This document shows positions 28,604-64,000 of a stretch of 64,000 nt of DNA, one piece after another. Below the pieces are notes generated by a model. The model was not told the origin of the DNA, ran no database searches, and saw only the letters and a list, made by a program, of their open reading frames with translations. Made by a program: the position numbers and the translations under genes. Where the stretch lies: assembly GCA_964503955.1 (NCBI GenBank), contig CAZDCG010000002.1, forward strand, positions 269,047 through 333,046. Direction: 5' to 3'. Each line of letters begins with the position of its first letter. Position 1 is the first letter of the stretch. The DNA is from an uncultured Gammaproteobacteria bacterium (GTDB taxonomy: Bacteria > Patescibacteriota > Patescibacteriia > VMEV01 > CAYQCH01).

Positions 28604-31600
28604 CTAGCTTCTGCGCAATCCGATATCTCCTTTCACGCTCTCCCCTTCTTTCTGAATACTGATTTGCGTAGGAAGCGGCTGGCGATCCTTTGGCGCTTCA
28701 ACGATTTCCGATTGAGTGAATCCCGGTTTTTCAGCCTTTAATACATATTTCCCCGGTTCAGGAGCAAAACGGAAACGTCCTTGATAATCCGACAGCCTTG
28801 ATGCAACCACTTTGCCAAAAGCCGGATCAATCAGCTGGAGATTGACCAGCGGCAATGGCGCATTGGTGGCGATATCGTAGACAGTTCCCCAGGCTTTTTC
28901 AGGCTTATGACGCAAGGTAAGCTGAAGCATGAAAAGAAGGATATACGCGGCCGACAAAATCCAGTTGACGGGATTTTCCGGAACAGCTGCCACGACCATC
29001 ACAGAAGCAAGCGATCCAACAAAGAGTAATGGCAAGGCAAGGAATTGACCGGCTTTCTGCAATGAGAGCCAAAGTTTCTTGAAGAGGCTGGCTGTCTGCC
29101 ATTTTTGCTCTGCATTAACAGGATCCATTGGCAGGTCAGGTACAACCAATTCCGTTGTTTGGTCGGTGATATCAACACCTCCCATGTAAACATGATCATA
29201 CTGCCCATCCTGACTGGTTCCAGTAACAATCGACGACGGGAAGGTATATTGCGGCTTTTTCACTTCAATGCGGTATGAACCAGGTTCAAGCAAAGCATCG
29301 TATTTGCCTTGTTTGTCCGTCACAAAGGTGGAAACGAGACGTTCTGAAGCACCGTCTTTCTTGTATAAGCGGACAATCGCCAAAGCAAGCGGATCTTTCG
29401 TGATAGCATCATACGCGATGCCGAAGAATCGCTGCTGCCCTTTCTTCCTTCTTCCCACTAGACCAACAAGATACGTGATCGCGTGATAGAGCAAGGTTGG
29501 CAAGTACGGAAGGTATCCCCACAAAGGAGCCGACGAGATGACAACCACGGGAGCGGCAACGGCTAATGTCTGCTGGATTTCTTCTTCTCGTTGTTCAACA
29601 ACGCGCTGCACTTCCTTGGTCACTGTCTTGATAGCCGTAACAAGCTCGCTTGAAGAAACAACGGTTTCAAAATCCGTTTGTACCTCTCCTTCTTTGGCGA
29701 TTGTCAGGGTGAATTCTCCTACTTGCACGCGCTCACTGCGCAAATCACCGGCCACGGCAATCGCCTCTACGCTGACACGCAAAGGTTCACCCGGTTGAGC
29801 TCCAAGCTGCTGAGCGCTGACATAAGCCTGCCAGACTCCGTTTGTATCGCTGACGGCCGATACGCTGATGAGTCCGTTGAAAATGAGGGTCACAACAGAA
29901 TTCGGCTCGCTTGTGCTTCCTGAGAATGCGATGCCTTCTTCCTGCTGATCAGCAAGTCCGTCAATCAGGACGGTCCGCGAGTCGTCTGTAACTTCAATAT
30001 TGAAGCTTTGACCATCGGTTGAAACGGTGGTTTGCGCGGGGCTTGGCATTGACGGACTTTGCGGCTCCGGCTGATTCAAAGAATCAATAAGCTGCTGCAA
30101 ATATTGCGGTGAAAGGCCGTCCTCTGTTGGTTCTGGGATTGGCCGAGGAAGTACCTCAGGCTGAGATTCAGGTTCCTGATCTGGTTCCGGTTCGTTCTTC
30201 GGCGTGATCAATGAAGCAATATCGACCTCAAAGTCTGCAATATTGCTGTAAATGGGTTCGGTGATTCCGGCATGATTCACGCTTGCCTGCAGCTGGATAA
30301 GAGGATTTGCCTGGGCAAGGACAGCGCTCGCTTCACTTGCCGAGAAATCATGCAAGAGAGCTGCGGTATCCAAGGCAATCTCAAATCGGATTGCGTGAGA
30401 TTGTCCCGGCTCAAGCATTGCCCAAGAGGCAGAGATGCCGTTTTGATTCGCCAGTCCGGGATCAGCTGCACCGGTTTCAGAACTTAAAGTACCATCGACT
30501 CTCAATGAACGGGGCGTATAGCTCACGTATTTAGGCAATGGAACATTTAGAATCACCTGATGAGCGTTCTTTGCGCCAGCATTACGAACGGAAGCTTCAA
30601 CAAGAATGCTCTGATGCGGCACAACAATGCCAGGTAGCTCATTTTCTGAAAGCGTCATCAAACGAATAGTCGGCAAGACGACGATCTCATCAGCCGACAA
30701 GGCTGGAATATGGATCATGCTGCTCCAGTCCGTGATCACGCCGTCAGCATTTCTGGCTCGCACACGCACTGAATACTCTTGGTCACCTTCAAGATTGCTA
30801 AAGGTATGGCTTGTCGTCTGAATCCAGTCTGATAATTGTGCTTGTGTCTGGCCGAGTACCGATACAAGCTCGAATTGAATAGCGCTTTGATTTGTCGTCA
30901 GATTGTTTATTGCTTCAACAACGGAAACCTCTACATTTGTATCCGTGCGAGAAGTTACTATCGGTGTTGGCTCAGGCATCCAAGTATAAACGTCAGGATA
31001 TACTCCGCTAGGAGTTCCCATGGATGATCCCAGATACGCAGCGATCTTGCGACCAGATATGAGTGTGTTGTGCCCCAATCCTTCTTCAGTTAATTGACGG
31101 GCCTGTGGCGAAGCAATCGTCGCAATGATTCGATTTTGAGCATCAAGCAGGTGAAACCCCTCGTGATTTGATCCCGCATAACTCCATTCATATTGCACGC
31201 GGTCATGGCTCAGCACGGTTGCCTCACCAAGATTCGGAATGTTCAAAGACTGGTGTTGAATGACCTGAGCTGGTGTCCCCTGACTCGATGAAGGTGGCGT
31301 TGCTCCATCTGGATAGTAAATTCGCGTTATGTATCCGTCTTCAGCGGACGTGGAAGCGATCTGATCACTGAACGGAGTTCCGGTTTGTGAAAGGGATGGA
31401 TATGCAGCTGATTCCAGATCTGAGTCGATTGTCTCTGAAGCGAAATAAATATTGTCACCTTCGATGATAAGCGAAGAGGCTACCTGCGCATCGCCAATTC
31501 GCGTTCCGTAAACCAAATCGGAACTTCCATTGCCATCTAGACTGAAACGGAGCAAACCAAATCCATCCTGATTGATATTGTTGCTGTAAGCACCGGCTGT

Positions 31601-34600
31601 AATTGGGAAGGTCGCATCGATTACTCTCAGCATGTACAAATCATCATTTCTTAAGAAGGCGGAGCTGCAGTTGCCTCCGTAGGAGCCATACACAAGATCA
31701 GCCGCGCCATTTCCGCCCGGATCGAGAACAAACATGTAACCATCGTCATCCGAAGTTGATTTATACGCGCCAGCCGTGATTGTCATGTCTCCGGAACCAT
31801 TGCTTCCACATCCGTAGATGTGCCCGGTAGATTCATGATGAATTACCGCCATAACAACCTCCTGATCGTTCCCCCCCATAAAGGTCGAATAGAGAAGGTC
31901 TGATGATCCGTTCCCGGAAGGATCCAGAACAGAAACAACCCCTTCGGTCCCAAACCCGGCTTTGACGGTATCAAACGCGCCAACGGTAACAGGATACGAA
32001 CCAGTATCTGAATACCCCGCCAGGTAGACAATGCCGTCATGGACATCAATACTTCTTAAAGCTTCAAATCCGCCTCCGCCCAAATATGTGGAGTATAAGA
32101 GATCATTTGCGCCGTTTCCGGCCAGATCAAGAACCATCACATAGAAGTCGATGCTGCCGTTTTGAGTAGTATCATAAGCTCCAGCCGTAGTGGGAAGATT
32201 CAATTGTGCAGGGCCGACTGCATACACAAGACCGTTTTCCACTCGAATTTCATCTCCTCCGATGATCCCGCGAGGCATAAGCCTTGTTGAATACTCCAAA
32301 ACAGATGCGTCGTTGTTGAAACGAAGGATAAATGCACCCGCATCCGCTGTGTTATCGAACGGAACTCCGCCTCCGTCCGCAATATATGGAATATCTGTTG
32401 AATGAGTCTCTCCAATGAGATAAATCTTGTCATCAGCAAAATCAAGAGAATTCAAGAGTGTTGTAGCATTTCCACCAAAGTAAGTTGCAAACTGCAAATC
32501 TCCGGCTCCGTTGCCATCAAGACTGAAGGCAGCGACATAAGAGTGGTCCGTACTATCGAACGTCTCATCATAAACTCCGGCAGTAACTGGAAAATCTACT
32601 GAGTCCGTTGATCCTGCTACGTAGACAATTCCATTCTCAACATCAAAACCGTTGACGGAATCACCCGCGCTTCCTCCAAAATAGGTTGAATAGTTTAGAT
32701 AAGGGGCGCCAGAATCCTGGATAAAACTTCCCATCGTCGTCCAATCAGATTGCGTTGTGCCGTTGTCATTTCGCGCGCACCAGTACTTTATTCCGTTCGA
32801 CAACGTGCTTACTCGCAAATACGTTATTGCATTCTTCGTGTTTGTGGCAGAGCTTGTCCCAGAGGCTTCTATATTTACATTTGCAAGACAATCCGCCGCG
32901 CTTCCACTGGAAACACGGAATTGCGTCGTACCCGTGAGCACCGAGTGAGTATAGTTAGACGCTAATATCACTACCCCTGCGCGAGTGGCCCCTTCATCTG
33001 GATAAACACGCGTCGGGGCTTCGGGAGGAACGGTCGCCGGGTCTAGTTCCGAATCAACCTCAAAGGAGATGAAAAAGGCTTCTGTTCCGCCATTGGCAAC
33101 AACGTCATAGGCATCACCACCGGTTGCAAAGGCAACAAAATCAGCAGAGTTGGTAATACCAGCCAGGGACAAATTTACCCCGTCATAATGCAGGGAATAA
33201 ACGGAATCTGCGCCCTCCCCGTCTAATTGAGTCGAAAAAGTCAGATCGTTTTGCCCATTGCCGGACGGATCCAGGATAGCCAAGAAGGCAGCGGAATCCG
33301 TGATGGATTCACCCGTCGATGTTACAAAATCGGAGCTGTTGGTTTCCCCTGCAATCGCAATGGAACCGGACGGTAATACCACGATTCCGTACGCGGCTTC
33401 ATCGGCGTCTCCGCCTATGAACGTTGAATACACTAAATCGTCGCCGCCATTGGAAGAAGGATCGATGATCACCGCGACTGCTTCAGAATTGCCGTTAAAT
33501 GATGAGCTGTACGCACCGGCTGTCGTTGGAAAGTTAGTTGAGTTGGTTAAGCCGGCAATATAGGCGATTCCTTGATCCACCTCCAGATCAAGCATGTCTT
33601 CATTGTCATCGCCTCCTAAGAAAGTTGAATATACCAGATCCCCCGACCCGTTGCCCGAAGGATCAATAATGGTAAGCGTGTCATCAAAAGGCCCGCCGCC
33701 ATAGGTGGTCTGCATCGCCTGGGCAGTCGTCGGAAAATTTGAATCGGTCGTGTAGCCAAGAATATACGCGTTGCCAGAATCAACCTCCACATCAACCGCG
33801 TCACTGGAACCGGTGCCAGTTCCAACGATGGTAGCGTACTGCAAATCAGCTGCTCCGTTACCATCAGGACTTATCAGGGCCAAAAAGATATCCGTCATCC
33901 CGTTTGCAGACTCATCATAGGCGCCGGATGTCGTCGGAAAGTCACTGCTTAGAGTAGAACCGGCGACGTAAATAATCCCACCGCCTACGTCAATTCCTCC
34001 AATATAATCGTCTTCTGCTAGCGTCCCCCCAATATACGTTGAATAGAGAAGATTCGAACCATCGGCCGCGAGACGGAATACAAATCCATCAAGAGCACCG
34101 GCATCGCTTGTAGAATCATATGCGCCAAGGCTTGTTGGAAAGTCGGCGGACGCGGTTGTACCGGCCGCGTAGACCTCGCCAGCAACAACTTTTATGCGAA
34201 GACTGCGGTGATCTCCAAAAGGTGATGCTGCATCCGTATCGGTACCGCCGATATACGTTGCATAGATCAAATCAGCATCCCCAGCCCCATCCGGCGAGAT
34301 TTTTGCGACGAACACATCGTTTGTACCGGCTAAAGATGTATCGTACGCCCCAAGTGTTGCGGGAAAATCAGCGGATGCTGTGCCGCCTGACACATAGATA
34401 TCTCCGCCCTCGACCGATATTGCGCTTGCCCAGTCATCATCCGAACCGCCTAAAAACGTTGAGTAGCTTACCCCGGCAGGGTGCAATAAATTTACCGTGA
34501 ACTCGCCCATTGAGGTCCAATCAGTCTGTTCCGTGCCATTGTCGTTGCGCGCGCACCAATAGTAGGTTTCACCATGAACAAGCCCGGAGGCTTCAAAGGT

Positions 34601-37600
34601 CGTTGGCTGATCCAATGATTCTGTGACGGCGCTTGTACCAAAATCAACAATATCAACACCGTTCACGCAATTAACCAACGAAGAGCTGCTGATTCTGTAT
34701 TCAGTGGTGCCCGTTTGAGCAGAATCTGTATACCAGGCGGAAAGGACAGGAGTTGATCTTGTGACCACAACCTGATCTTGCGGATAAATAATAAGCGGAT
34801 CCTGAAGCCCCTGCGCAGCGATGCGATACGCGACAAATTCACCTGTTGACGCGCGGTAGCCGGTTACATAGGCAAGGCTCGGGTCAATTGCGTCAATCGC
34901 ACTGTAAAACCCGGCCTCCGAATCGTCTCCATCAGGCTCGATATGAGTTGTGATATCCCAGGTATCACCGCCGTCTATCGAGAAAAAATATTGGAAGTCT
35001 AGATTGTTAGGAGCGGCTGCAAAGATATGGTCCGCGTCAGTCGCATCGATAGAAGGCCATTCAAAGAATCCCCCGGTACTGTCAATCACGCTGGTTTCCC
35101 ATGTCGCTCCTCCATCCGTTGTCTTCGCAAACATCAATGTTTGATCGGTATCATTTGTATAAACAGCATAAGCCGTAAGCTCGTCGATAACTTTGATCGC
35201 ATGTCCAAAACCGACATCTCCAACCGTATCAACATCGTTCAGAGTCCAGTTTGCGCCTCCATTGGTCGTTACAGCGGATTGGAGATCGCCATCCAAATCG
35301 TCACGATACAAAAGATAGATCGTGTTTTCATCAAATGCGTCGATCGCGTGCGGTGAGGTAATGTAGCCTGGCCCGACGGCGACCTCGGTTAAATCTCCGC
35401 CTGCATTTGTGGTAGACGTCACGTAAACCTGCCCATCCGCCTGTTTTGAATACGCAACAAAGAACGTATTGTCATCCACAACCGTAATGGCAGTATAGGA
35501 ATCAACATCATCGTCTTCATGTATGCCGATATAGGAGTCATCCGTTGTCCAAACCCAAACCTCGCTTAAAGGCCCGCCTCCGTCCCACGCATATGAAATA
35601 TAAGCAGTTCCGGAAGCAGTCGCGTCGATAGAGGTTGCGAAAACATCTGCATCAAAATCGAATTGATCCCAGGAGAATCCCCCGTTTTCAGAGAAGGCAA
35701 AGTATCCTTGACCGTTGTCTTCATCACGATAAGACGCGTAAAGATTATCCTCGTCGATCGCGACCATATCACTATCCGTCCCCGCGATATTGCCTCGTTG
35801 ATCAATGACAACTTCCGTCCAATTGCTTGTATCGATAGGGGTGGTATTTGTTTCATTCGACACGTCTCCCGTCCCAATCGCGTTTACCGCATAAACGACA
35901 AAGGTGTAATCGATGCCATTCACAAGGCCTGTTACGGTCGATTCCGGGATATCGCTGATACCGTCATCAAATACAGTGGCATTGCCCGGCCAGCCAGATG
36001 TTTCTCCGTATTCTATTACGTAATCTGTTATTGGTGATCCCCCGTCATTAGGCTCTGACCAGGTCAAGACTGCTTTACCGTTTCCAGGAGCGCCATCCAA
36101 ATCCGTGATAGCGGCGGGTGCGAATTGTCCTCCCATCCAGATTTCAAACGTTCCGGGCGCGCCCTCATGGATAGAAACCATGTCTAGCACACCATTTTTA
36201 TCCAAGTCCGCAAGCGCAGCATCAGTGCCGTGTTCTGCAACAGGAATCTGCCCTTTTGCGGAAAAATCAGGTGCCGCAGCAGAGTTGTTTAGTAAAATTT
36301 CATACCAACCATCGTTGAAACCGGGATTTGTGAATGCAACGATATCGGGATCATCGTCTCCATCAAGATCCCCTGATATGATCTCGCGGATACCATCGTT
36401 AAAAATGACATCAGGCTGAGACCAGGTAAATGAAGCACTCCCGTCGTTGGTACCAAAACTCAATGCGTCATTGGCAATGAGAAAATGATTGAAATCATCA
36501 GCGAGCAGGAACTGGTCCACAACAACATGATCCGTTGTTCCGAAATTGGCATCCGTTGAGTTGAAAGCAAAATTCGCGCTCCCGTCATTAAGCAAATATC
36601 CAACAGCATCGGTTGTCGCTCCCCCTTCGATAATGAGGTCAAGATCGTAGTCATTATCAAGATCAGCGGCATAGATCTCCAAAGAGGATGCCGTTACGGC
36701 ATAAGCCGCATCATATACCAGCTGGCTGCCATTATTGAGAAAGACAATGACATTTCCTGAAAAATACTGACTCACGGCAAAATCCATGAGCCCGTCTCCA
36801 TTGAAATCACCGGCAGCAACATCACCGAATGATACGTTATTCCCGCCCAGATCCACGGTCATCTCTGAATTGAAGTTCCCGCTGCCATCGTTCAAATGAA
36901 TTTCAATATCATTGCTTAAGTGAACGAAGATGATATCTAAATAGTCATCATCATTCATTGGAGCCAGTGAGATGTTGCGACCCTGAAGCCCCGGCTCTGA
37001 TATCACGATATCCACGGGAGAAGCAAAACCGCCAAGCCCGTCGCCAAGCCAGCGTTCCAGCCCTCCATTCATGTTAGAGATCACAAGGTCGAGATTGCCG
37101 TCTCCGTTCAAATCTCCTAATTTTACGTCGCTTGGACGCACGCCAAGACTTTGATCATTGTTGAACAATGTAGAGGAAGCATGTCCGAAATTCGCAAAAC
37201 CATTAGGCACGTTGACGGTATAGGTGAAGATATACGGGCCGTCTAACGGATCTCCCGTGGCGGCGGACAGGATCGCATTCGTAAGGGTGACGCTTACTTT
37301 TTCCCCTGCAAAATCAAATCCATCAGTTGGAGTAAACTGAACGGTTGTGTCTCCATTGCTGAACGCAAAATTTCCCAAGCTTCTGCGTCCCGTCTGGTTT
37401 CCAATCACCACAAAACTATCAGCCGTAATACTTGCCTGATCGACTGCTTCAGAAAAATCAACCGTGATGGGTGAATTGAAAGCAACACCGTTCGCGTGCA
37501 ATGACGGGGTGGTCGAAACAACAGATGGAATACCGGCGACAAAGACGGATGCCCTGACTCCAACTGCTTTATCGGATTGATATTGAGCAAGAAAGTATGA

Positions 37601-37660
37601 TGAGCATGCCAACAGAACGACAATAAACAGACTCGCTGTAAGAGCAAAGTATTTTCTCAT
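28604..37660 (-). CDS. Giant secreted surface protein 1 (3018 aa). Domain order: signal peptide, Big-like, FG-GAP/VCBS, FN3, BNR-like, SBBP-like beta-propeller repeats, FN3/DUF11-like, Pro-rich linker, Ig-like, TM, CarboxypepD_reg-like, 2TM, CarboxypepD_reg-like
   Basis: Single uninterrupted 9-kb frame. N-terminal signal peptide MRKYFALTASLFIVVLLAC. FG-GAP-like DLNGDGNLDLV/GDFNGDGLMDFAV. FN3-like VLTWSEPNDGGSPITDYVIEYG. BNR-like SENGGFSWDQ/TNGGANWT/TDGGATWE. Dozens of [Y]STFLGGSDDDWASAISVEGGDIYVSGGTASADFPATLGAYD repeats. C-terminal anchor module shared with the four downstream paralogs. Confidence 0.8.
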   Translation of the reverse strand: MRKYFALTASLFIVVLLACSSYFLAQYQSDKAVGVRASVFVAGIPSVVSTTPSLHANGVAFNSPITVDFSEAVDQASITADSFVVIGNQTGRRSLGNFAFSNGDTTVQFTPTDGFDFAGEKVSVTLTNAILSAATGDPLDGPYIFTYTVNVPNGFANFGHASSTLFNNDQSLGVRPSDVKLGDLNGDGNLDLVISNMNGGLERWLGDGLGGFASPVDIVISEPGLQGRNISLAPMNDDDYLDIIFVHLSNDIEIHLNDGSGNFNSEMTVDLGGNNVSFGDVAAGDFNGDGLMDFAVSQYFSGNVIVFLNNGSQLVYDAAYAVTASSLEIYAADLDNDYDLDLIIEGGATTDAVGYLLNDGSANFAFNSTDANFGTTDHVVVDQFLLADDFNHFLIANDALSFGTNDGSASFTWSQPDVIFNDGIREIISGDLDGDDDPDIVAFTNPGFNDGWYEILLNNSAAAPDFSAKGQIPVAEHGTDAALADLDKNGVLDMVSIHEGAPGTFEIWMGGQFAPAAITDLDGAPGNGKAVLTWSEPNDGGSPITDYVIEYGETSGWPGNATVFDDGISDIPESTVTGLVNGIDYTFVVYAVNAIGTGDVSNETNTTPIDTSNWTEVVIDQRGNIAGTDSDMVAIDEDNLYASYRDEDNGQGYFAFSENGGFSWDQFDFDADVFATSIDATASGTAYISYAWDGGGPLSEVWVWTTDDSYIGIHEDDDVDSYTAITVVDDNTFFVAYSKQADGQVYVTSTTNAGGDLTEVAVGPGYITSPHAIDAFDENTIYLLYRDDLDGDLQSAVTTNGGANWTLNDVDTVGDVGFGHAIKVIDELTAYAVYTNDTDQTLMFAKTTDGGATWETSVIDSTGGFFEWPSIDATDADHIFAAAPNNLDFQYFFSIDGGDTWDITTHIEPDGDDSEAGFYSAIDAIDPSLAYVTGYRASTGEFVAYRIAAQGLQDPLIIYPQDQVVVTRSTPVLSAWYTDSAQTGTTEYRISSSSLVNCVNGVDIVDFGTSAVTESLDQPTTFEASGLVHGETYYWCARNDNGTEQTDWTSMGEFTVNLLHPAGVSYSTFLGGSDDDWASAISVEGGDIYVSGGTASADFPATLGAYDTSLAGTNDVFVAKISPDGAGDADLIYATYIGGTDTDAASPFGDHRSLRIKVVAGEVYAAGTTASADFPTSLGAYDSTSDAGALDGFVFRLAADGSNLLYSTYIGGTLAEDDYIGGIDVGGGIIYVAGSTLSSDFPTTSGAYDESANGMTDIFLALISPDGNGAADLQYATIVGTGTGSSDAVDVEVDSGNAYILGYTTDSNFPTTAQAMQTTYGGGPFDDTLTIIDPSGNGSGDLVYSTFLGGDDNEDMLDLEVDQGIAYIAGLTNSTNFPTTAGAYSSSFNGNSEAVAVIIDPSSNGGDDLVYSTFIGGDADEAAYGIVVLPSGSIAIAGETNSSDFVTSTGESITDSAAFLAILDPSGNGQNDLTFSTQLDGEGADSVYSLHYDGVNLSLAGITNSADFVAFATGGDAYDVVANGGTEAFFISFEVDSELDPATVPPEAPTRVYPDEGATRAGVVILASNYTHSVLTGTTQFRVSSGSAADCLANVNIEASGTSSATNTKNAITYLRVSTLSNGIKYWCARNDNGTTQSDWTTMGSFIQDSGAPYLNYSTYFGGSAGDSVNGFDVENGIVYVAGSTDSVDFPVTAGVYDETFDSTDHSYVAAFSLDGNGAGDLQFATYFGGNATTLLNSLDFADDKIYLIGETHSTDIPYIADGGGVPFDNTADAGAFILRFNNDASVLEYSTRLMPRGIIGGDEIRVENGLVYAVGPAQLNLPTTAGAYDTTQNGSIDFYVMVLDLAGNGANDLLYSTYLGGGGFEALRSIDVHDGIVYLAGYSDTGSYPVTVGAFDTVKAGFGTEGVVSVLDPSGNGSSDLLYSTFMGGNDQEVVMAVIHHESTGHIYGCGSNGSGDMTITAGAYKSTSDDDGYMFVLDPGGNGAADLVYGSYGGNCSSAFLRNDDLYMLRVIDATFPITAGAYSNNINQDGFGLLRFSLDGNGSSDLVYGTRIGDAQVASSLIIEGDNIYFASETIDSDLESAAYPSLSQTGTPFSDQIASTSAEDGYITRIYYPDGATPPSSSQGTPAQVIQHQSLNIPNLGEATVLSHDRVQYEWSYAGSNHEGFHLLDAQNRIIATIASPQARQLTEEGLGHNTLISGRKIAAYLGSSMGTPSGVYPDVYTWMPEPTPIVTSRTDTNVEVSVVEAINNLTTNQSAIQFELVSVLGQTQAQLSDWIQTTSHTFSNLEGDQEYSVRVRARNADGVITDWSSMIHIPALSADEIVVLPTIRLMTLSENELPGIVVPHQSILVEASVRNAGAKNAHQVILNVPLPKYVSYTPRSLRVDGTLSSETGAADPGLANQNGISASWAMLEPGQSHAIRFEIALDTAALLHDFSASEASAVLAQANPLIQLQASVNHAGITEPIYSNIADFEVDIASLITPKNEPEPDQEPESQPEVLPRPIPEPTEDGLSPQYLQQLIDSLNQPEPQSPSMPSPAQTTVSTDGQSFNIEVTDDSRTVLIDGLADQQEEGIAFSGSTSEPNSVVTLIFNGLISVSAVSDTNGVWQAYVSAQQLGAQPGEPLRVSVEAIAVAGDLRSERVQVGEFTLTIAKEGEVQTDFETVVSSSELVTAIKTVTKEVQRVVEQREEEIQQTLAVAAPVVVISSAPLWGYLPYLPTLLYHAITYLVGLVGRRKKGQQRFFGIAYDAITKDPLALAIVRLYKKDGASERLVSTFVTDKQGKYDALLEPGSYRIEVKKPQYTFPSSIVTGTSQDGQYDHVYMGGVDITDQTTELVVPDLPMDPVNAEQKWQTASLFKKLWLSLQKAGQFLALPLLFVGSLASVMVVAAVPENPVNWILSAAYILLFMLQLTLRHKPEKAWGTVYDIATNAPLPLVNLQLIDPAFGKVVASRLSDYQGRFRFAPEPGKYVLKAEKPGFTQSEIVEAPKDRQPLPTQISIQKEGESVKGDIGLRRS

Positions 37661-37765: not shown

Positions 37766-40700
37766 TCAGTCATTCATGCGTCTGAGCGCGAGATCTCCTT
37801 TGACTGTTTCACCTTCTTTTCGGATATCAATTTCGCTTTCCAGCAATGCACGCGACTCTTTTTCTTCAACCACTTCCGTTTGCGCGTATCCTTCCTTCTC
37901 TGCCTTTAACACGTATTTCCCCGGTTCAGGCGCGAACCGGAAACGTCCTTGATAATCGGATAGCCTTGATGCAACCACTTTGCCGAATGCCGGATCAATC
38001 AGCTGGAGATTGACCAGCGGCAAAGGCGCATTTGTAGCGATATCGTAGACGGTTCCCCAGGCTTTTTCAGACTTTTGACGTAATTTCAGCTGCAAGAGGA
38101 ACATCAACACATAAGCGGCTGACAGAATCCAATTAATTGGATTTTCGGGAACCGCTGCCACAACAACGACAGATGCAAGCGAACCGACAAAAAGCAATGG
38201 AAGCGCGAGGAAATGGCCGGCTTTTTGGAATGAAAGCCAGATTTTCTTGAACACGTTGGCCGTCTGCCACTTCTGTTCCATATTGACCGGATCCATAGGC
38301 AGATCTGGGACAATCAGCTCGGTTGTCTGGTCAGTGATTTCAATTCCTCCCTGGTACACATGGTCATATTTTCCGTCCTGCGTAATGCCTGACACAATCG
38401 ATGACGGGAAGGTATATTGCGGCTTTTTCACTTCGATGCGGTATGAACCAGGTTCTAAAAGCGCGTCATATTTACCTTGTTTATCCGTCACAAACGTGGA
38501 AACAAGACGTTCAGCATCATGTTCTTTCTTATAGAGGCGGATGATTGCTAAAGCCAAAGGATCCTTGGTAATCGCGTCATAAGCCACGCCGAAGAATCGC
38601 TGCTGACCTTTCTTCCTTCTTCCCACTAGACCGACAAGATACGTGATCGCGTGATAGAGCAAGGTTGGAAGATATGGGAGATAGCCCCATAAAGGAGCCG
38701 ACGAGATGACAACCACGGGAGCGGCAACTGTTAATGTTTGCTGGATTTCTTCTTCACGATCCTGAATGATCTCTTCAACCTTGTTTGTAACAGCGTTTAT
38801 GAACGCGGATAATTCATTTGGAGCCGCAATTGTCTCAAAATCCGCTTCAACGATTTGTTCATTCGCTCCACGTTCAACCGTGAAGCCACCAACACTCACC
38901 CGATCGCTAAGCAAATTCCCCTTAGACGCAATCACCTGAACAGAAACATTGACTCTTTCCCCTGGGAGCAGTCCAAGTTGCTCCGCGCTCACATAGGTTT
39001 GCCAGAATCCCTCGTCATCACTGACGACGATAACGGTAATATTACCATTGAAGATAAGGGTTACCGTGCTATTCGGCTGGCTGGTTGTTCCTGAAAATTC
39101 GATCTGGCCATTGCCAACGCGCGCGATGCCTGTCACCAGCAGAGCTTCTTGTTCCTCTTCTCCTTGCTCTCGTACCACTTCAAGGGTGAAGCTTTCGCCG
39201 TCGCTTGAAACCGTTGTTATTGTTTGAGGCTCTGGTGCTGCCGGTTCCTCTAAATCATCAACGGATATGCCGATCTCATCTTCGATGAGACGGTCCACAA
39301 CCTGACCCACTTGCCCAACCTCTTCCTGCGTTGGCGCAGGGACAGATTCCTGCTCAACAGGCTTCTCTTTGGCCGGTTCAGATATTTCTTCATCAAGAAC
39401 AGGCAATGCTTCAACATCCTCAGGTTGCTCCGTGGTTTCTTCTTCAATAGGCTCGTCAACAGGCTCTTCCTCAACGGGTTGCTCTTCCACTGGCTCATCA
39501 ATAGGTTCCTCTTCTGCAGGTTCTTCATCGTTTGACTCGTCTGCAGGCGACTGCTGATTTTGTTCATTCTGCTGCTGAATCTGCTGGCGCTGCTGCTGGC
39601 TTATCCCATCGCTTTGCGAAGGAGCAGGAGCTGGGGATCCCATTGTGAAACTGTCCGCTGATGTTGAGTATTCCCCTTCCGTGTCGTTGTCATCCCAGAA
39701 TTTGATCCGCACATAATAAGTTGAGCCGTCTTGCGCAAGGGCTGCTCCGCCAAAATTGATATTTTGGCTTCGATTGCCATCAACACAATCGGCCATTGAT
39801 TGCTTGCCGCTATCCCAGATGATGCTTGCAAATGTTGAATCGGTATCATCTACCTGGACACGATACGCATTCATAACATCGCCGATATCGGGGTCATTGC
39901 AGATCGCGCTAAAAACAGGATTTGTGCTTGTAATCCCCGTAGGATTGCTTGATCCCGATTGCGCGTCCGTATCATGGATGAAAATTTCCGTCGGTGCTGA
40001 AGGAGCGGAAAAATTCGCGGGTTCAGGGAGATCAAATGCAGCAACGAATCCGTCATTTCCTCCTCCCCCGGTACCAAATACAACCGCCCCCCCTTCGGTT
40101 TCCAGATCCGGTGAAGACGTATAAGCGGAGACATAGAATCGATCGTTAGAAAGATCCAGATACGCTCCGGCATCAGATTCACTTCCACTCCCCCCAAAAT
40201 ACGTTGCGTGCACGAGGTCGGAGAGCCCTCCCCCAACAGCATTGAATCTGCCAATAATCAGATCTTTTATTCCGCCGGCATGCGTCGTTGAAAATGCATC
40301 GCTCGTCACAGGGAAACTGTCACCTCCTGATCCCAAGAATGTGAGGAGACTGTGTTCGCTTAAATGAAGTTCACCGCACCATTCGCTTTTCGTCCCCCCA
40401 AGATAGGTTCCATAGATCAAATCTTCTTCTCCATTTCCATTAAGCGACATGCGGTAAAAAAACATATCTCCATTTCCGCCGGCATTGATCTTGCTATACG
40501 CATTATTCGTTGTAGGCAGATCAGTCGAATGTGATGTTCCACAGACATAGACTTCCTGCGTTTGCTGATTTACTGCTGCGCTGAAAGCTGAATCATAATC
40601 ATCCGTTCCGCCAATGAAGGTGCCATAAGCAAGAGAAGTAACCGAGGTGCCAGACGGGTCGATTTTGAGCAGAAATCCATCGCCGTTCACATTATCAAGA

Positions 40701-45539: not shown

Positions 45540-48500
45540 TCAAAAGAGTCGCATCGGAATATCACCGCTGATTGTCTGGTTCTCCTTTTCAATCACCAGC
45601 TCGCCGGAAATCATACGGTGGTTTTTCGCGCCTTCAACCACTTCCGCCTGCGCATAGCCATCCTTTTCCGCTCTCACGACATACTTCCCAGGCTCAGGCG
45701 TGAATCGGAAACGTCCTTGATAATCAGAAAGACGGGAGGCAACAACTTTGCCAAAGGCAGGATCAATCAACTGGAGGTTCACAAGCGGCAAAGGCGCGTT
45801 TGTTGCAATATCGTAAACAATTCCCCACGCTTTTTGCGGTTTTTGACGCAATTTTAACTGCAGCAGGAACATCAACACGTAAGCGACGGACAAAATCCAG
45901 TTGATTGGATTCTCAGGAACTGCCGCCACGACAACAACGGAGACAAGCGACCCGGCAAAAAGCAGCGGCAAAGCCAGGAAATTGCCGGCTTTCTGCAATG
46001 AGAGCCAAAGTTTCTTGAAGATATTCGCTGTTTCCCACTTCAGTTCTGCGTTGACGGGGTCCAGCGGCAAGTCAGGGACAACCAGTTCAGTTGTCTGATC
46101 GGTGATCTCAATTCCCCCTTGGTACACATGGTCGTAAGCACCATCTTCCGAGGTCTCTGAAACGATGGATGATGGGAAGGAGTACTGGGGTTTCTTCACG
46201 TCAATGCGATACGAGCCTGGTTCAAGCAGAAAGTCGTACTTCCCTTGTTTGTCGGTAACGAAAGTAGAAACCAGGCGTTCAGACGCATTTTCTTTTTTAT
46301 AAAGACGGACGATCGCAAGAGCTAGAGGATCCTTGGTAATCGCGTCATAAGCCACGCCGAAGAATCGCTGCTGACCTTTCTTCCTTCTTCCCACTAGACC
46401 GACAAGATACGTGATCGCGTGATAGAGCAAGGTTGGAAGATATGGGAGATAGCCCCATAAAGGAGCCGACGAGATGACAACCACGGGAGCGGCAACTGTT
46501 AATGTTTGCTGGATTTCTTCTTCACGATCCTGAATGATCTCTTCAACCTTGTTTGTAACAGCGTTTATGAACGCGGATAATTCATTTGGAGCCGCAATTG
46601 TCTCAAAATCCGCTTCAACGATTTGTTCATTCGCTCCACGTTCAACCGTGAAGCCACCAACACTCACCCGATCGCTAAGCAAATTCCCCTTAGACGCAAT
46701 CACCTGAACAGAAACATTGACTCTTTCCCCTGGGAGCAGTCCAAGTTGCTCCGCGCTCACATAGGTTTGCCAGAATCCCTCGTCATCACTGACGACGATA
46801 ACGGTAATATTACCATTGAAGATAAGGGTTACCGTGCTATTCGGCTGGCTGGTTGTTCCTGAAAATTCGATCTGGCCATTGCCAACGCGCGCGATGCCTG
46901 TCACCAGCAGAGCTTCTTGTTCCTCTTCTCCTTGCTCTCGTACCACTTCAAGGGTGAAGCTTTCGCCGTCGCTTGAAACCGTTGTTATTGTTTGAGGCTC
47001 TGGTGCTGCCGGTTCCTCTAAATCATCAACGGATATGCCGATCTCATCTTCGATGAGACGGTCCACAACCTGACCCACTTGCCCAACCTCTTCCTGCGTT
47101 GGCGCAGGGACAGATTCCTGCTCAACAGGCTTCTCTTTGGCCGGTTCAGATATTTCTTCATCAAGAACAGGCAATGCTTCAACATCCTCAGGTTCCTCCA
47201 TGGTTTCTTCTTCAATAGGCTCGTCAACAGGCTCTTCCACTGGCTCATCAATAGGTTCCTCTTCTGCAGGTTCTTCATCGTTTGACTCGTCTGCAGGCGA
47301 CTGCTGATTTTGTTCATTCTGCTGCTGAATCTGCTGGCGCTGCTGCTGGCTTATCCCATCGCTTTGCGAAGGAGCAGGAGCTGGGGATCCCATTGTGAAA
47401 CTGTCCGCTGATGTTGAGTATTCCCCTTCCGTGTCGTTGTCATCCCAGAATTTGATCCGCACATAATAAGTTGAGCCGTCTTGCGCGAGGGCTGCTCCGC
47501 CAAAATTGATATTTTGGCTTCGATTGCCATCAACACAGTCGGCCATTGATTGCTTGCCGCTATCCCAGAGGATGCTTGCAAATGTTGAATCGGTATCATC
47601 GACCTGGACACGATACGCATTCATCACATCGCCGATATCGGGGTCATTGCAGATCGCGCTGAAAACCGGGGTTCCGGCTGTAAGGTCTATTGGATTTGAT
47701 AAGCCAGCCTGAGCATTTGTATTGTTGGCAAACAGGTTGGTCGGAGCTGTCGGCGCGGAGTTGGTGGCGCCAGCGCCTGCAAAATCGATACGCATGATCA
47801 ATCCCTTATCGAAACTTCCGTCAACCGTGGTCTGAAACGGAGTACCTGTCGCGGAGAATGCTTCTAAAGAATACGCCTGCATGTACCCGCCCAGATAGAC
47901 GATATCTCCTTGAACATCAACCCCCCGGAAATGCTCATCAGTACCATCCACGCCAAAAATTGAAGCGTAAATAAGATCATTAACACCGTTTCCTCCGGGA
48001 TTCAGGCGCAGGAGGTACGCATCTTGGCTAAAAAACACCTCGTTTCCATAGGTTGTCGCAGGCGTGACAAGAGGGTTGTTATCGCTGGTTGATCCGACCA
48101 GGTAGACATCTGTACCGTCGAAAGCGATGTTATTAAAGCTCTGACTGATGAAAGTCGAATATTCTAAGGCCCCTGTACCAGCAACGGCGGTGTCAAATTT
48201 AATCAGATAACCTTCACTGAACCCAGTGAAACTTGTGTCGTAAGCACCCACGGTTGTGGGGAAACCCGAACCGCCCGTATTGCCAACCACATATATCTCA
48301 CCCGTTGTTCGATCAAATGCCGCGCCGGTTACGCTTTCGCTGCTTGTTGTGCCCAGGAATGACAGGTATTGCATGTCTGTTGATCCTCCACCTGCCGGGT
48401 CAAGGCGCCCAAAAACGGTATCCAAGCTACCGTTGTGCGTTGAATCATATCCTCCAGGTAATGACGGAAAGTTGGATGAGAATGCGTCGAGGGTGAAATA

Positions 48501-53167: not shown

Positions 53168-56100
53168 TTAGCCTCGTGATGTCATCGGTACATCGCCCGT
53201 AATACGCTCATTTGTCTTTTGGACCTCGATTTCAGGGGGGATCGGGTGATGTTGATCATCTGGTGCTTCAACAACTTCCCGGACCTGCTCATAGCCTGGC
53301 TTGTTTGCCTTGATGACATACTTGCCTGGTTCCGGCATGAAGCTGTACCGGCCCTGGTAGTCAGTCAGCCGGCTGGTAACGACCTTTCCATACTGCGGAT
53401 CAATGAGCTGGACAGTTGCCAATGGCAGCACGGCGTTCGTAGCTAGATCGTACACGACACCCCATGCTTTTTGGGCATGCACACGAAGTTCAAGCTGAGC
53501 AGACAACATGCCTACATACACAATCGCAAGCAGCCAGTTGATCCAGTTATCTGGAACCGTAATGACAACCAGAATACTTGCGAGCGAGCCGATGAAGAGA
53601 ACAGGAACAGCGAGGTAGTTGCCCACTTTTTGCAGCAGCATCCAGAGTTTTTTGAGGCCGCTGCTGAGCTGCCACTGGCGCTGCGCATTGACCGGATCAA
53701 GAGGAACGTCAGGAATAACCAAGTCTTGTTCCTGCACAATTATTCCCTGTTCATTGCTGTACGCATGATAATTGCCGCCAATTTCAGAGGTCACGATTTG
53801 GCTTGGGAACGTGTATGTCGGTTTGGTCACTTCAAGTCGGTAGTTGGCAGGTTCGAGAAGCGCTTCATACCTGCCCTGCTTGTCGGAAACCTGCGTAGAA
53901 ACGAGCTTGTTGGTTTCCTTGTTGTAGATACGGATGATAGCAAGTGCTAATGGCTGCTTGGTAATGCTGTCGTAGACAGTGCCGTAAAAACGGCGGTCTT
54001 GTTTCTTCTTGCGGCCGAGAAGGCCGATCAAATACGTGAAGAAGTGATACAACAGCGTCGGCACATATGGCAGGTATCCCCACAAAGGCGCGCTGGCGAC
54101 GAGCACTACCGGAGCCGTGACAGAAAGACTTGTCTGGATTGTCTGCTGTTGTTCCTCAATAACCTGCTGAACCTGTTGTACAGCACCGATAAAGCCGGTT
54201 GTTTTCACGTCGACATCAGTGAAATCGGTCGTGATCACGTCCTCGGTCAAGCGCGTTACGTTGACCAGACCGACAACAACTTGTTCGCTGCGAAGTTCAC
54301 CTTTGGCAGCGATTGCTTCAACACGGATCTGACGTGACTGGCCTGGAAGCAAGCCGATATCATCAGCACTAACAAATGTACGCCATTGCCCGGATGCATC
54401 ACTTGTGACGATCATCGTGACAGTGTCATTGATGATGATTGTTACTGTTGTAAATGGCTCAGTAGTCGTACCACTGAATTCAACCCCATCACCATTTGTC
54501 ACCGCGTTTCCGCTCACTCCCAGAAAAGCCGTGCCTCCCTGCGTTTCCAACTCAAACGTTCCCGGGCCGGTGGTCACGTCCGTGTTACCAACCTGCGGTG
54601 ATGGTTGCGTTGGCTGGCTCGGCTTGTCCGGCTGTAGAATATCCTCGATAACGACCACTTCTTCTTTTGTTGGTGGCGCAACCGGCTCTTCCACCACATC
54701 CTCTGTTGTAACAAAGGAGTTCAACTCTGGTTCCGCAACAACAATGTTGCTGTAGGTCGGCTCGGTCGTGGAATCTTCACTTGCAATTGCCTGCAACTGC
54801 AGCTGAGGGCCGGCAGCAGCCAGAGCTTCGCGAATTTCACTCGTGTCACCTGATTCCACGCTGATGTTTTGCAGCAGCTGGAATAGATCTTCTCTGGTAA
54901 CGACAGGGGCGCGTAAGGGCTCCTTAGGCAGTCGATTTTCGTCAATCTGTGAGTCATCATCGAGAAAATCGCGAAGCATGGACTGCGTGTCAAAGGCCAG
55001 GATGAAAGAAAGCGTGTGACCAAAACCGAAGTCCAGTGTCGGCCAAATGCCAGCAACTGTTTCCTGTGTAAACTGCCCGGCATCCCCATCTGGAATTTCG
55101 CTGTTGCGTACGCCGTTTACTCGCAAAGAACCTGGAATGTAGCTCAAATACGGAGGCAATGGAACAGTTAATAACACATTGCGAGCCTGCAACGCGCCAT
55201 TATTAAGAATGTGTGCCTTCACATACAAAAGCTCATTTGGATTCACCGGACCGCTTATGCTACGGCCGTCAGCTGTTGTTACTTGGAGGTCTACAAGCAA
55301 TTCTATCGGCGCCTGAAACTCCTGCGCGCTGATCATGACATTATTGCTCCAGTCAGTTTCTACTCCGTCGTAGTTGCGCGCTCTCACGCGAGCATAATAA
55401 GCCTGGTCACGATCGGTGTTTTCAAAGACATAGGTACTGGCCTGGATCCAGTCACTTGCAATGATTGCGGAACCTGATACAGAATCCGCCGGCATGAGTT
55501 CGAACTGAACCGCGCTTTGACCTGAGGTCAAGTGATTGAGTTCTTCCGTAACCCCGACACGAATACGATCATCTACGCGTGAAATCTGAGTCAGTGTGAC
55601 GGAAGTCATATGCGTGTAGACCGATGGGAAAGTCTGACTGGAGGTCCCGCGCGTTGATCCGACAAAAGCGGCAACGCGACGTCCTTCAATCAAGGTGTTA
55701 TGAGGCAAACCACTTTCAACGACAGTGCGAACCTGTGCTTCATTAACGATCTCAAGAATGGTTTGTTGCTGATCAAGCAGGTAAAAGCCGCTGTGACCCG
55801 TTGTTGAGTAGCCCCATTCATACTGCACGCGGTCATGACCGGTCGTGCGCACGCTAACGATGGTTGGCGTGGAAAGCGACTGTGTCTGGATGCGCTGGAT
55901 GGAAGACCCGCCTCCTCCACCGCCTCCTCCGCCACAGCCGGCGCCAGCACTAGAAGGGATTTCCGTAGAAAAACCGAAGCCGTCATTGCCCCCAAAAGCA
56001 ACGGAGCTAAAATACCCACCAGAAACCGGCATATCTGACGACGTTGTCTCACCCGCTACGTACAGTACATTGGTGTCTGCAACATATGTCGCGCCTTGGT

Positions 56101-62244: not shown

Positions 62245-64000
62245 CTATGCCTGCCGTAACCCAAGATCACCCTTGATACTTTCCCCCTCTCTTTCAATGA
62301 TGATTTGCGATGGCAGCGTCTGACGATCTTTTGGAGCTTCTATCGTCTCTGATTGCTGAAATCCTGGTTTTTCCGCCTTCAACACATATTTTCCAGGCTC
62401 AGGAGCGAATCGGAACCGGCCCTGGTAATCGGATAGCCTTGAAGCGACGACTTTGCCGAATGCCGGATCAATCAGCTGAAGATTCACCAGAGGCAAAGGC
62501 GCATTGGTGACGATATCGTAAACAATCCCCCAAGCCTTTTCAGGCTTTTGACGGAGTTTCAGCTGCAACAAGAACATCAGCACGTAAGCGACGGACAAAA
62601 TCCAGTTGATTGGATTCTCAGGGACTGCCGCCACAACAACAACTGACGCAAGCGAACCCACAAAAAGCAATGGAAGCGCGAGGAAATGGCCTGCTTTCTG
62701 CAATGTGAGCCACAATTTCTTTAAGATATTTGCTGTCTGCCACTTCTGTTCCGCATTGATTGGGTCCATTGGCAAGTCCGGAACAATCAATTCAGTTGTT
62801 TGGTCCGTAATCTCAATGCCACCCTGGTAGACATGGTCATACTGTCCGTCTTGTGAGATACCTGACAGAATCGATGACGGGAAAGTATATTCTGGCTTCT
62901 TGACCTCAATGCGGTATGAACCAGGTTCGAGAAGCGCATCATACTTTCCTTGTTTATCCGTCACAAACGTAGAAACGAGACGTTCAGATTCACCATCTTT
63001 CTTGTAGAGACGGATGATTGCCAAGGCGAGCGGATCTTTTGTAATCGCATCATAAGCCACACCAAAGAAGCGCTGCTGGCCTTTCTTGCGTCTTCCAATC
63101 AAGCCGACAAGATATGTAATCGCGTGATACAGCAAGGTTGGCAGGTATGGGAGATACCCCCATAAAGGAGCGGATGAGATGACCACCACGGGAGCGGCAA
63201 CCGTCAATGTTTGCTGGATTTGCTCCTCATTGCGTTCAACCGTTTTCACAAGCTCTTTGACCGCAAGACGAACGGCAGTAAGGGCCTGACTTGATGAGAC
63301 AATAGATGAAAATTCGGCAAGGACAGAACCGTCTGCAGCATGGGAGAGAACAAAATCTCCGACATGGACAATTTCGCTTCGCGTGTCATTGACAGAAGCC
63401 ACGGCATCGATTCTGACCGTTTGATCCATTCCAAGGTCTATGCCAAGCTGTTCAGCGCTGACATAAGTTTGCCAGAACCCTGAGGCATCTGTACGAACAA
63501 TAACAGAAACACCATTATTGAAGATTAATGTCATAACCGTGTCCGGCTGAGATGACCGGCCAATAAACTCAATCTGATCTCCTGTAACACGAGCGGATCC
63601 TGTCACTTCAAAAATCGTTCTACGGCCATTATCGGCCTCGCTCACGGCAATAGCGAAACTCTTTCCGTCGCTTGAGCTTTGTGTTGACACCTCCCGGCCC
63701 TGATCAAGCCCTGCCCCACCATTTCCAATCATTCCCCCTATTTCGCTGGTTTCTTCGCCAATGAGTTGATGAATTCCATCAATTTGGCTTGTTTCATCTG
63801 CCGTTGGCGGCAAAACAGGTTCTTGATCAGCGGGCAGCATCACCGGCGGTTCTGGAGCCACAGGGAACGATGACAGGTCTACAAATAATATTTTTTGGGA
63901 TATCACAACTGACTCGGTCTCCTGCGCGCTAACACTTGCCTGTAAGATGTACGCTGCAATTTCGCTCTCGCCATCCTGCAATTGAGTTTGTTTCAGATCA
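62245..64000 (-). CDS. Giant surface protein 5, 5'-partial (frame open to window end; ORF-track start at 63981 is an in-frame TTG, not the real start). Ig-like + shared C-terminal 3-TM/CarboxypepD_reg anchor
   Basis: The reverse-complement frame stays open through 64000 (...DLKQTQLQDGESEIA...). No signal peptide in the visible part. The C-terminal 470 aa is highly similar to genes 1-3 (e.g. WGIVYDIVTNAPLPLVNLQLIDPAFGKVVASRLSDYQGRFRFAPEPGKYVLKAEKPGF). Confidence 0.75.
   Translation of the reverse strand, partial: DLKQTQLQDGESEIAAYILQASVSAQETESVVISQKILFVDLSSFPVAPEPPVMLPADQEPVLPPTADETSQIDGIHQLIGEETSEIGGMIGNGGAGLDQGREVSTQSSSDGKSFAIAVSEADNGRRTIFEVTGSARVTGDQIEFIGRSSQPDTVMTLIFNNGVSVIVRTDASGFWQTYVSAEQLGIDLGMDQTVRIDAVASVNDTRSEIVHVGDFVLSHAADGSVLAEFSSIVSSSQALTAVRLAVKELVKTVERNEEQIQQTLTVAAPVVVISSAPLWGYLPYLPTLLYHAITYLVGLIGRRKKGQQRFFGVAYDAITKDPLALAIIRLYKKDGESERLVSTFVTDKQGKYDALLEPGSYRIEVKKPEYTFPSSILSGISQDGQYDHVYQGGIEITDQTTELIVPDLPMDPINAEQKWQTANILKKLWLTLQKAGHFLALPLLFVGSLASVVVVAAVPENPINWILSVAYVLMFLLQLKLRQKPEKAWGIVYDIVTNAPLPLVNLQLIDPAFGKVVASRLSDYQGRFRFAPEPGKYVLKAEKPGFQQSETIEAPKDRQTLPSQIIIEREGESIKGDLGLRQA

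Follow-up and report, generated by a model that had tools for sequence, protein, structure and literature searches.

How are surface proteins of 2502 to 3018 residues held on the cell that makes them? The question is raised by the window analysed here, a stretch of 64 kb from contig CAZDCG010000002.1, in which five tandem minus-strand open reading frames (ORFs A-E), separated by gaps of 61-119 bp and lying upstream of uvrC, all end in the same tail of about 330 residues with three membrane helices and two small beta-sandwich domains. We propose that this tail, henceforth the module, is an uncleaved, three-pass, load-bearing C-terminal membrane anchor whose named carriers are all Patescibacteria, a reading to which we give somewhat better than even odds (about 0.55). 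What is new is a C-terminal membrane anchor module built of known folds and undescribed as a unit in the literature searched, a limited collection outside which an earlier description is possible; neither Pfam nor NCBIfam holds a model of it as a unit. A sequence-only reading of the window had pointed out the shared tail and called it a non-standard mode of anchoring. The strings, coordinates and strand that it reported for the five paralogs are correct (identities to A are given in Table 1), and its judgement of novelty stands insofar as the unit is missing from those databases and that literature; the mode is not rare, however, since the module belongs to a large Patescibacteria family.

The tails of A to E share one order of parts: an Ig-like beta domain that closes the ectodomain, a helical stalk, a 37-residue hydrophobic segment (segment 1), an RRKK patch, a CarboxypepD_reg domain, a tight hairpin of two transmembrane helices (TM2 and TM3) and a second CarboxypepD_reg domain. 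The ectodomain-side motifs FSG(T/S)TS... and AAPVVVISSAPLWGYLPYLPTLLYHAITYLVGLVG are located in the tails as first quoted, and the TM2-TM3 junction reads PENPxNW, with the variant PDNWINW in D. AlphaFold2 (AF2) was run on the last 480 residues of A with a 55-sequence alignment, as the sequence-only reading had suggested for telling membrane helices from buried strands, and gave a mean predicted local distance difference test score (pLDDT) of 87. The hydrophobic segments are modelled as helices and not as buried strands (residues 173-198, 321-354 and 359-378), so that this refuting condition of the sequence-only reading did not come true, the small domains as beta-sandwiches (208-309 and 387-479), and an all-beta domain and a 31-residue helix precede them (Table 1). 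The first of these, the last unit of the ectodomain, may be Ig-like, a label drawn solely from its confident all-beta model and a sub-threshold match to NCBIfam Ca_tandemer (26 bits against a cut-off of 50); Pfam gave no match over it at E<=1.

Both small domains are true members of the CarboxypepD_reg/transthyretin-like group, by sequence as well as by fold. Pfam PF13620 matches two stretches each in A (61.1 bits, E=1.3e-16) and in D (68.5 bits), well above its gathering cut-off of 32.3 bits, as the domain pattern read from the letters had implied. AF2 models both as seven-strand, transthyretin-like beta-sandwiches with pLDDT values of ~90-97, and Foldseek matches them to the transthyretin-like domain of human carboxypeptidase D (5aq0, TM-score 0.75-0.80) and also to CnaB, SdrD-B and SpaA. 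A relative of the whole module was not found in the PDB.

The module is the signature of a family that reaches far beyond the window. A word-indexed search with the module returned 9 relatives and a profile built from those returned 50, while HMMER, run exhaustively over 1.84 billion cluster representatives, returned 6888, 4067 and 1780 representatives at E<1e-3, 1e-10 and 1e-30, totals that are upper bounds to which proteins with a single CarboxypepD_reg domain or with tandem repeats contribute. When 198 proteins were re-scanned with the module HMM, 159 carried the full module, comprising all five window proteins and 154 others, with the same order of parts through the second CarboxypepD_reg domain at the C-terminus and a hairpin loop of 2-8 residues. 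The module is always C-terminal in these 159 carriers, where a median of 14 residues follows, and the proteins range from 316 to 3603 residues (median 944). Their passengers are of extracellular type (Big_5, FG-GAP, fn3, SBBP, PKD, DUF3108-like and pilin-like), and an N-terminal hydrophobic helix is present in 109 of the 141 that start with Met. Every named member is from Patescibacteria (Parcubacteria, Uhrbacteria, Patescibacteria group, Saccharibacteria), including a 417-residue homologue from a Saccharibacteria metagenome-assembled genome (MAG) in which the module follows a signal peptide and a short ectodomain. The public annotation of one member is 'hypothetical protein'; for others it refers to nothing but a carboxypeptidase regulatory-like domain. 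The MAGs with the closest relatives (54-59% identity) each encode several of them, partly in tandem. These MAGs (loci L004-L012; contigs CAYGRO01, CAYHTI01 and CAYQCH01) are titled 'uncultured Gammaproteobacteria bacterium', which looks wrong given the Patescibacteria-type family that they carry. The transposon sequencing (Tn-seq) supplement of PMC10633639 contains SEML1_0890, a 'carboxypeptidase regulatory-like' structural hit that could not be mapped to the module.

The family consensus runs through AP, ~22 hydrophobic residues, (R/Q/H), another ~11 hydrophobic residues, GRRK..R and xWG-VY(N/D)S-TK-P-DLAIVRL...VTDK-GRY-FL..PG-Y, and from there through FPS...DG-Y...Y-G...IP-DP, a basic linker, TM2 (G...S), P, TM3, K-WG-VYD and the second CarboxypepD_reg domain. 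The elements FPS, DG.Y, Y.G and IP.DP, conserved at or above 75-90% in the 159 sequences, form an extension of domain 1 that lies outside the canonical fold. The small-residue pattern G...S of TM2, with G in at least 75% of the sequences, is of a type known for tight helix packing or for oligomerisation. An amphipathic character of the helix before TM2 was considered and dropped, its hydrophobic moment of 0.59 against 0.50 for shuffled sequence being too weak for a claim. The module also contains two related units. Unit 1 is made up of the helix end, a basic linker and domain 1, and unit 2 of TM3, a basic linker and domain 2; aligned with each other they show 30% identity (E=2e-10), and the alignment begins inside the helix and takes in the shared pattern xWG-xVYD. 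Judged from this alignment, the module is an internal duplication of a unit made of helix, basic linker and beta-sandwich, between whose copies the extra helix TM2 restores orientation. Since the duplication takes in the helix end, the two domains should share one side of the membrane.

Could the five tails be alike merely through recent tandem duplication or gene conversion, without any function being implied? B and C do share an exact tract of 869 nt and a further 306 near-identical nt. Outside this tract, by contrast, the differences between the paralog modules have nearly saturated the synonymous sites (proportion of synonymous differences, pS, 0.56-0.69), with proportions of nonsynonymous differences (pN) of 0.08-0.13 and ratios of nonsynonymous to synonymous change (dN/dS) of 0.05-0.11; over the 275 codons upstream of the module pN is 0.39-0.48. 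Low dN/dS at nearly saturated synonymous sites means that the module is under purifying selection and has not been recently copied. Recent duplication as the cause of the similarity is refuted by these ratios together with the family-wide profile matches, in which the module is still recognisable at 23-50% identity in other lineages, and we give it next to no credence. The near-identical region of B and C spans the Ig-like domain, the stalk, segment 1 and the start of CarboxypepD_reg domain 1, the flanking module DNA being only 66-83% identical, and looks like a recent gene-conversion or recombination patch.

On which side of the membrane do the two domains lie? We predict with good confidence that both are cytoplasmic, because of the positive-inside rule, the single crossing of segment 1 and the composition of the domains. 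Across the 159 sequences, the three flanks on the domain side hold a mean of 12.1 lysine and arginine residues (K/R) against 1.4 in the ectodomain-proximal flank plus the TM2-TM3 loop, and the domain side is the richer one in 159/159. The mean net charge is +4.5 over the 8 residues after segment 1, +3.2 over the 21 residues before TM2 and +2.3 over the 7 residues after TM3; it is -1.1 over the 20 residues before segment 1 and 0.0 in the TM2-TM3 loop of 2-8 residues. As for segment 1, its second part (segment 1b) comprises in many relatives just 11 uncharged residues after a conserved Arg (...NYL-R-YLFTQPLLLLG-RKKRK) and in other relatives contains a Glu (LFTEPLAWLF); in the proteins of the window that Arg is replaced by His. 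AF2 renders segment 1 of P0036, a pilin-type homologue, as helices of 18 and 13 residues. Since a segment 1b so short or so charged cannot re-cross the membrane, segment 1 would cross once and the basic cluster would be cytoplasmic; to judge by sequence, a hairpin is excluded for the relatives whose segment 1b has 11 residues or bears Glu.

The composition of the domains likewise appears cytoplasm-like. Lysine plus arginine (K+R) make up 2.7-4.2% of the ectodomains of A-D, 9-14% of their CarboxypepD_reg domains and 10-18% of cytoplasmic proteins encoded in the window (LysRS, RRF, MreB), and the corresponding values for serine, threonine, asparagine and glycine (S+T+N+G) are 34-37%, ~20% and 18-25%. 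In 149 family members the passengers hold 5.8% K+R and 32.5% S+T+N+G and the domains 12.7% and 23.3%, K+R being higher in the domains than in their own passenger in 99% of these proteins (p=4e-26). Secreted tandem CarboxypepD_reg repeats hold 0.8-6.2% K+R and 30-46% S+T+N+G. The positive-inside topology that the sequence-only reading had put forward is thus supported as a prediction by the charge census, the single crossing and the composition alike.

How might such a tail be inserted, and what would it do? In the order of events that we infer, the N-terminal signal or anchor helix would initiate Sec export of the passenger, which measures from ~100 to more than 3000 residues across the family, until segment 1 halts transfer and leaves the RRKK cluster in the cytoplasm. 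Domain 1 would then fold at the cytoplasmic face, TM2 and TM3 would insert as a tight hairpin with an external loop of 2-8 residues, and domain 2 would fold at that cytoplasmic face too. Each beta-sandwich is joined to its helix end by a basic linker of 7-10 residues, so that both domains, if cytoplasmic, must lie against the inner leaflet. We propose that the two domains act as the head of a rivet: in a monoderm-type cell that adheres to others, their folded, positively tethered footprint and the three helices together would keep long adhesin-like proteins, which reach 3600 residues in the family and presumably bind other cells, from being pulled out under load. While architecture, family and conservation are matters of observation, this mechanical role is what we infer.

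The N-termini of the complete proteins A-D all show a basic stretch and, after it, a hydrophobic helix of signal or anchor type (4/4), and the GFTLIE prepilin methylation motif is absent from them. In B and D (...AYLYKNESL and ...GYLYKSERL) no AxA cleavage site is obvious, and two-ended membrane attachment is therefore possible: the giants may be held in the membrane at both ends, each making a giant surface loop.

Several observations weigh against the anchor as we picture it. In the window clade segment 1 consists of 37 uncharged residues in two hydrophobic halves (Kyte-Doolittle hydropathy 1.7 and ~1.4) and is long enough for a hairpin by hydropathy alone; AF2 is uncertain over its first half (AVAAPVVVISSAP, pLDDT 39-57); and the closest solved matches of the domains (carboxypeptidase D/N, SdrD B, CnaB, SpaA) are extracellular or belong to the secretory pathway. 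The argument from composition is circumstantial, as the secreted control repeats may stem from other phyla, and the conserved FPS...IP.DP extension suggests a binding surface, for which a passive rivet would have no need. The first three of these points would suit an arrangement in which segment 1 is a hairpin or does not span, the CarboxypepD_reg domains sit between membrane and wall, as do all CarboxypepD_reg and CnaB domains characterised so far, and only the TM2-TM3 turn is cytoplasmic. We consider this improbable: it would leave the inner side almost free of K/R, with ~12 per protein on the outer side, in 159/159 sequences, it meets in many relatives a segment 1b of 11 uncharged residues, or one with Arg or Glu, that cannot span, and it leaves the domains with a K/R content like that of the cytoplasm and unlike that of secreted CarboxypepD_reg repeats and of their own passengers. 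No better a prospect is that segment 1 and the basic cluster mimic the tripartite signal of sortases or exosortases, the passenger being cut and the module a remnant or a part of the sorting machinery. A conserved motif (AP...; PLWGY.P in the window clade) does precede the helix, followed by hydrophobic residues and RRKK, but it is not an LPXTG, PEP or PGF motif. Directly before the helix, where the sequence reads ...PLWGYLPYLPTLLYH..., an LPXTG-type motif is absent, the 'LPT' being unconserved (VPT, APT, IPS and APR in relatives), and no sorting-signal family (PEP-CTERM, PGF-CTERM, GlyGly-CTERM) is among the NCBIfam matches at E<=1. The lack of a known motif, the non-terminal position and the ~280 well-conserved residues after the basic cluster make a cleavable sorting signal unlikely, and a sortase-like gene is adjacent in none of the examined loci.

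The extension of domain 1 bears on a reading that keeps the topology of the proposed anchor and gives it another task, namely that of a trans-membrane coupling device whose cytoplasmic beta-sandwiches dock a partner (cytoskeleton, elongasome, or a secretion or signalling protein), either transmitting adhesin events inward or positioning the adhesin from inside. The strong conservation of this non-canonical extension in the 159 sequences would fit such a device, as would the strong purifying selection on the module, the long charged low-complexity tails of some homologues beyond domain 2, with KFG as the last three residues in three cases, and the presence in the window of two MreB copies, MreC and PBP2. 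We nevertheless hold it to be unlikely. Eight homologue-bearing loci have no universal or recurrent neighbour gene, only the pilin-type orthologues of two genomes sharing their context, and mreB is adjacent in 0/8; the mre genes of the window lie 8-18 kb off, inside a generic one-strand housekeeping block; and no signalling or enzymatic domain is recognisable in the module or in the tails of homologues. A link to the elongasome was rejected on the non-recurrence of mreB in these loci, and the suggestion, made from the letters, that the tail couples the surface protein to a cytoplasmic partner or to the elongasome finds no support here, so that the interpretation given there is partly supported. 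A shade more doubtful is an integrin-like link, in which the module would be a phylum-wide anchoring system of Patescibacteria whose cytoplasmic domains bind an intracellular partner through the FPS...IP.DP surface. If this were true, attachment to a host would involve a mechanical or informational link between the cell interior and the giant adhesins, or even the pilin-like proteins.

How does the proposed anchor compare with known systems? With the CarboxypepD_reg/CnaB-like domains (5aq0, SdrD B, SpaA, CnaB2) it shares a sequence family, above the Pfam cut-off, and a fold. The closest solved examples are, however, extracellular or lumenal spacers, whereas the domains of the module are K/R-rich, sit on basic helix ends and are predicted to be cytoplasmic, and domain 1 adds the family-specific FPS...IP.DP extension. 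The tripartite signals of the LPXTG/sortase, PEP-CTERM/exosortase and PGF-CTERM/archaeosortase systems resemble it in that a motif, a hydrophobic helix and a basic cluster end varied secreted proteins as a portable, lineage-typical tag; the module differs from them in continuing for ~280 conserved residues, which form a further pair of helices and two folded domains, in being probably uncleaved, and in having no processing-enzyme gene near the genes that carry it. The closest analogy, one of function only, is with the gliding surface proteins Gli349 and Gli521 of Mycoplasma mobile, multi-thousand-residue proteins that are anchored in the cytoplasmic membrane by transmembrane segments and encoded in tandem, Gli521 being drawn with its transmembrane part at the C-terminal end, after domains I-III (PMC7052211). 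These too are giants held by their own transmembrane segments and encoded by tandem genes, but a sequence relationship was not found, Mycoplasma is wall-less, and no transthyretin-like cytoplasmic domains are described for its proteins. Within the Candidate Phyla Radiation (CPR), the ten longest proteins of Vampirococcus lugosii (1392-4163 residues) are thought to mediate host recognition and attachment, and giant proteins with a presumed role in attachment are reported to abound in the membrane proteomes of CPR bacteria (PMC8080830). The V. lugosii giants are likewise predicted CPR membrane proteins of giant size; the difference is that PMC8080830 holds no description of this C-terminal module.

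A subset of the family resembles type IV pilins. The N_methyl prepilin motif begins 8 of the 141 complete family proteins, for example P0020 (27.2 bits against a cut-off of 21.2) and P0036, whose AF2 model shows a 52-residue N-terminal helix followed by a beta-sheet; the window proteins differ in having ordinary signal or anchor helices. The combination of a GFTLIELLV N-terminus with the same three-helix anchor was seen in P0020, P0026, P0031, P0034, P0036, P0038 and P0046. We know of no characterised pilin with an additional C-terminal three-helix tether. A protein so tethered could not be drawn out into a filament, and a prepilin-like N-terminus joined to a C-terminal anchor should prevent filament assembly. 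The two pilin-type loci (L003, 10001-11779; L014, 8001-9572) have the same context in two genomes, with Fpg upstream and PAP2, ManC and YceG/MltG downstream. Elsewhere in the family, five homologues (P0128, P0177, P0097, P0160 and P0136) extend 100-290 residues beyond domain 2 in low-complexity tails rich in K, E, P and S, and three of the long-tailed homologues terminate in the same tripeptide. In two further genomes (L015, 7405-8634; L016, 1-391) a second CarboxypepD_reg surface protein adjoins the module protein, amid WxL-like, Laminin_G and CARDB proteins, an arrangement that suggests surface-protein islands like the five-gene array of the window.

The genes of the window lie nearly all on the minus strand in a compact block. 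Housekeeping genes (SerRS, LysRS, GreA, ProRS, an RseP-like M50 protease, RRF, the DNA polymerase III delta' subunit and UvrC) stand beside envelope genes (FemAB, a Mur ligase, PBP2, MreC, the two MreB copies, DUF4012 and three GT2 glycosyltransferases), and the rod-shape and wall set is complete for a small genome and on a single strand. No tRNA gene or Rfam element was matched across the whole 64 kb. The closest named relatives of the LysRS are from Parcubacteria, Paceibacterota, Uhrbacteria and the 'Patescibacteria group', which makes the organism a CPR/Patescibacteria bacterium, and the monoderm-type envelope genes FemAB, Mur ligase and PBP2 lie in the same window as this Parcubacteria-like LysRS; judged from these genes, it is a Patescibacteria bacterium with a monoderm-type wall. 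The passenger of A contains Big_5, FG-GAP and fn3 domains, and those of B and D contain DUF7948, SBBP beta-propeller repeats and Ig_Rha78A_N, so far as domain matches tell adhesin-type domains in the middle parts of the giants. The coordinates of all these features are collected in Table 1.

Table 1. Positions in the window of the five giant ORFs, of the parts of the ORF A tail, and of the other features named in the text (E is cut by the window end)
Feature	Position	Strand	Remarks
ORF A	28604-37660	-	3018 aa giant surface protein; N-terminal signal/anchor helix, C-terminal anchor module
ORF B	37766-45478	-	2570 aa
ORF C	45540-53048	-	2502 aa
ORF D	53168-62182	-	3004 aa
ORF E	62245 to beyond 64000	-	cut by window end
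ORF A, all-beta (Ig-like) domain closing the ectodomain	29666..30046	-	residues 1-127 of last 480 aa; AF2 pLDDT 86-98, 10 strands
ORF A, acidic alpha-helical stalk, 31 residues, just outside the membrane	29558..29650	-	AF2 helix 133-163
ORF A, hydrophobic segment 1 (AVAAPVVVISSAPLWGYLPYLPTLLYHAITYLVGLVG)	29453..29563	-	interpreted as crossing the membrane once, with a short interfacial helix in addition
ORF A, basic stop-transfer patch RRKKGQQRFF	29423..29452	-	family mean net charge +4.5 over 8 aa
ORF A, CarboxypepD_reg/transthyretin-like domain 1	29114..29422	-	conserved FPS...Y.G...IP.DP extension; predicted cytoplasmic
ORF A, basic linker helix preceding TM2 (AEQKWQTASLFKKLWLSLQKAGQ)	29045..29113	-	AF2 model, charge census
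ORF A, TM2 (FLALPLLFVGSLASVMVVAAV)	28982..29044	-	family-conserved G...S pattern
ORF A, external loop PENPVN, 6 residues	28964..28981	-	
ORF A, TM3 (WILSAAYILLFMLQLTL)	28913..28963	-	
ORF A, basic linker RHKPEKA, then CarboxypepD_reg domain 2	28607..28912	-	protein end; predicted cytoplasmic
ORF B, anchor module	37769..38761	-	331 aa, 85% identical to A
ORF C, anchor module	45543..46529	-	329 aa, 81% identical to A
ORF D, anchor module	53171..54157	-	diverged, 58% identical to A
ORF E, anchor module	62248..63234	-	87% identical to A
Exact 869-nt tract common to B and C	38558-39426 = 46326-47194		
Further 306 near-identical nt of B and C	39481-39787 = 47231-47537		
Rod-shape and wall gene set	1197-26096		single strand
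MreB paralogs	13586-14641 and 19518-20543		one strand with other wall genes

What does the module mean for the bacteria that carry it? All Patescibacteria (CPR) in cultivation live attached to another microbe (PMC11623550), and surface proteins and their anchoring are therefore central to understanding these organisms. The module provides a sequence signature for a large and diverse set of surface proteins, from 300 to 3600 residues and including pilin-like ones, with at least 154 counted here outside the window and the profile search pointing to many more, and it singles out a large part of the Patescibacteria surface proteome. Its topology, in which a normally extracellular fold would be used on the cytoplasmic face, is testable. 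Saccharibacteria are, to our knowledge, the one CPR lineage with genetic tools, and the existence of a Saccharibacteria homologue makes such experiments feasible. The conserved surface of the predicted cytoplasmic domains could serve as bait for asking whether epibiont adhesins have any connection inside the cell.

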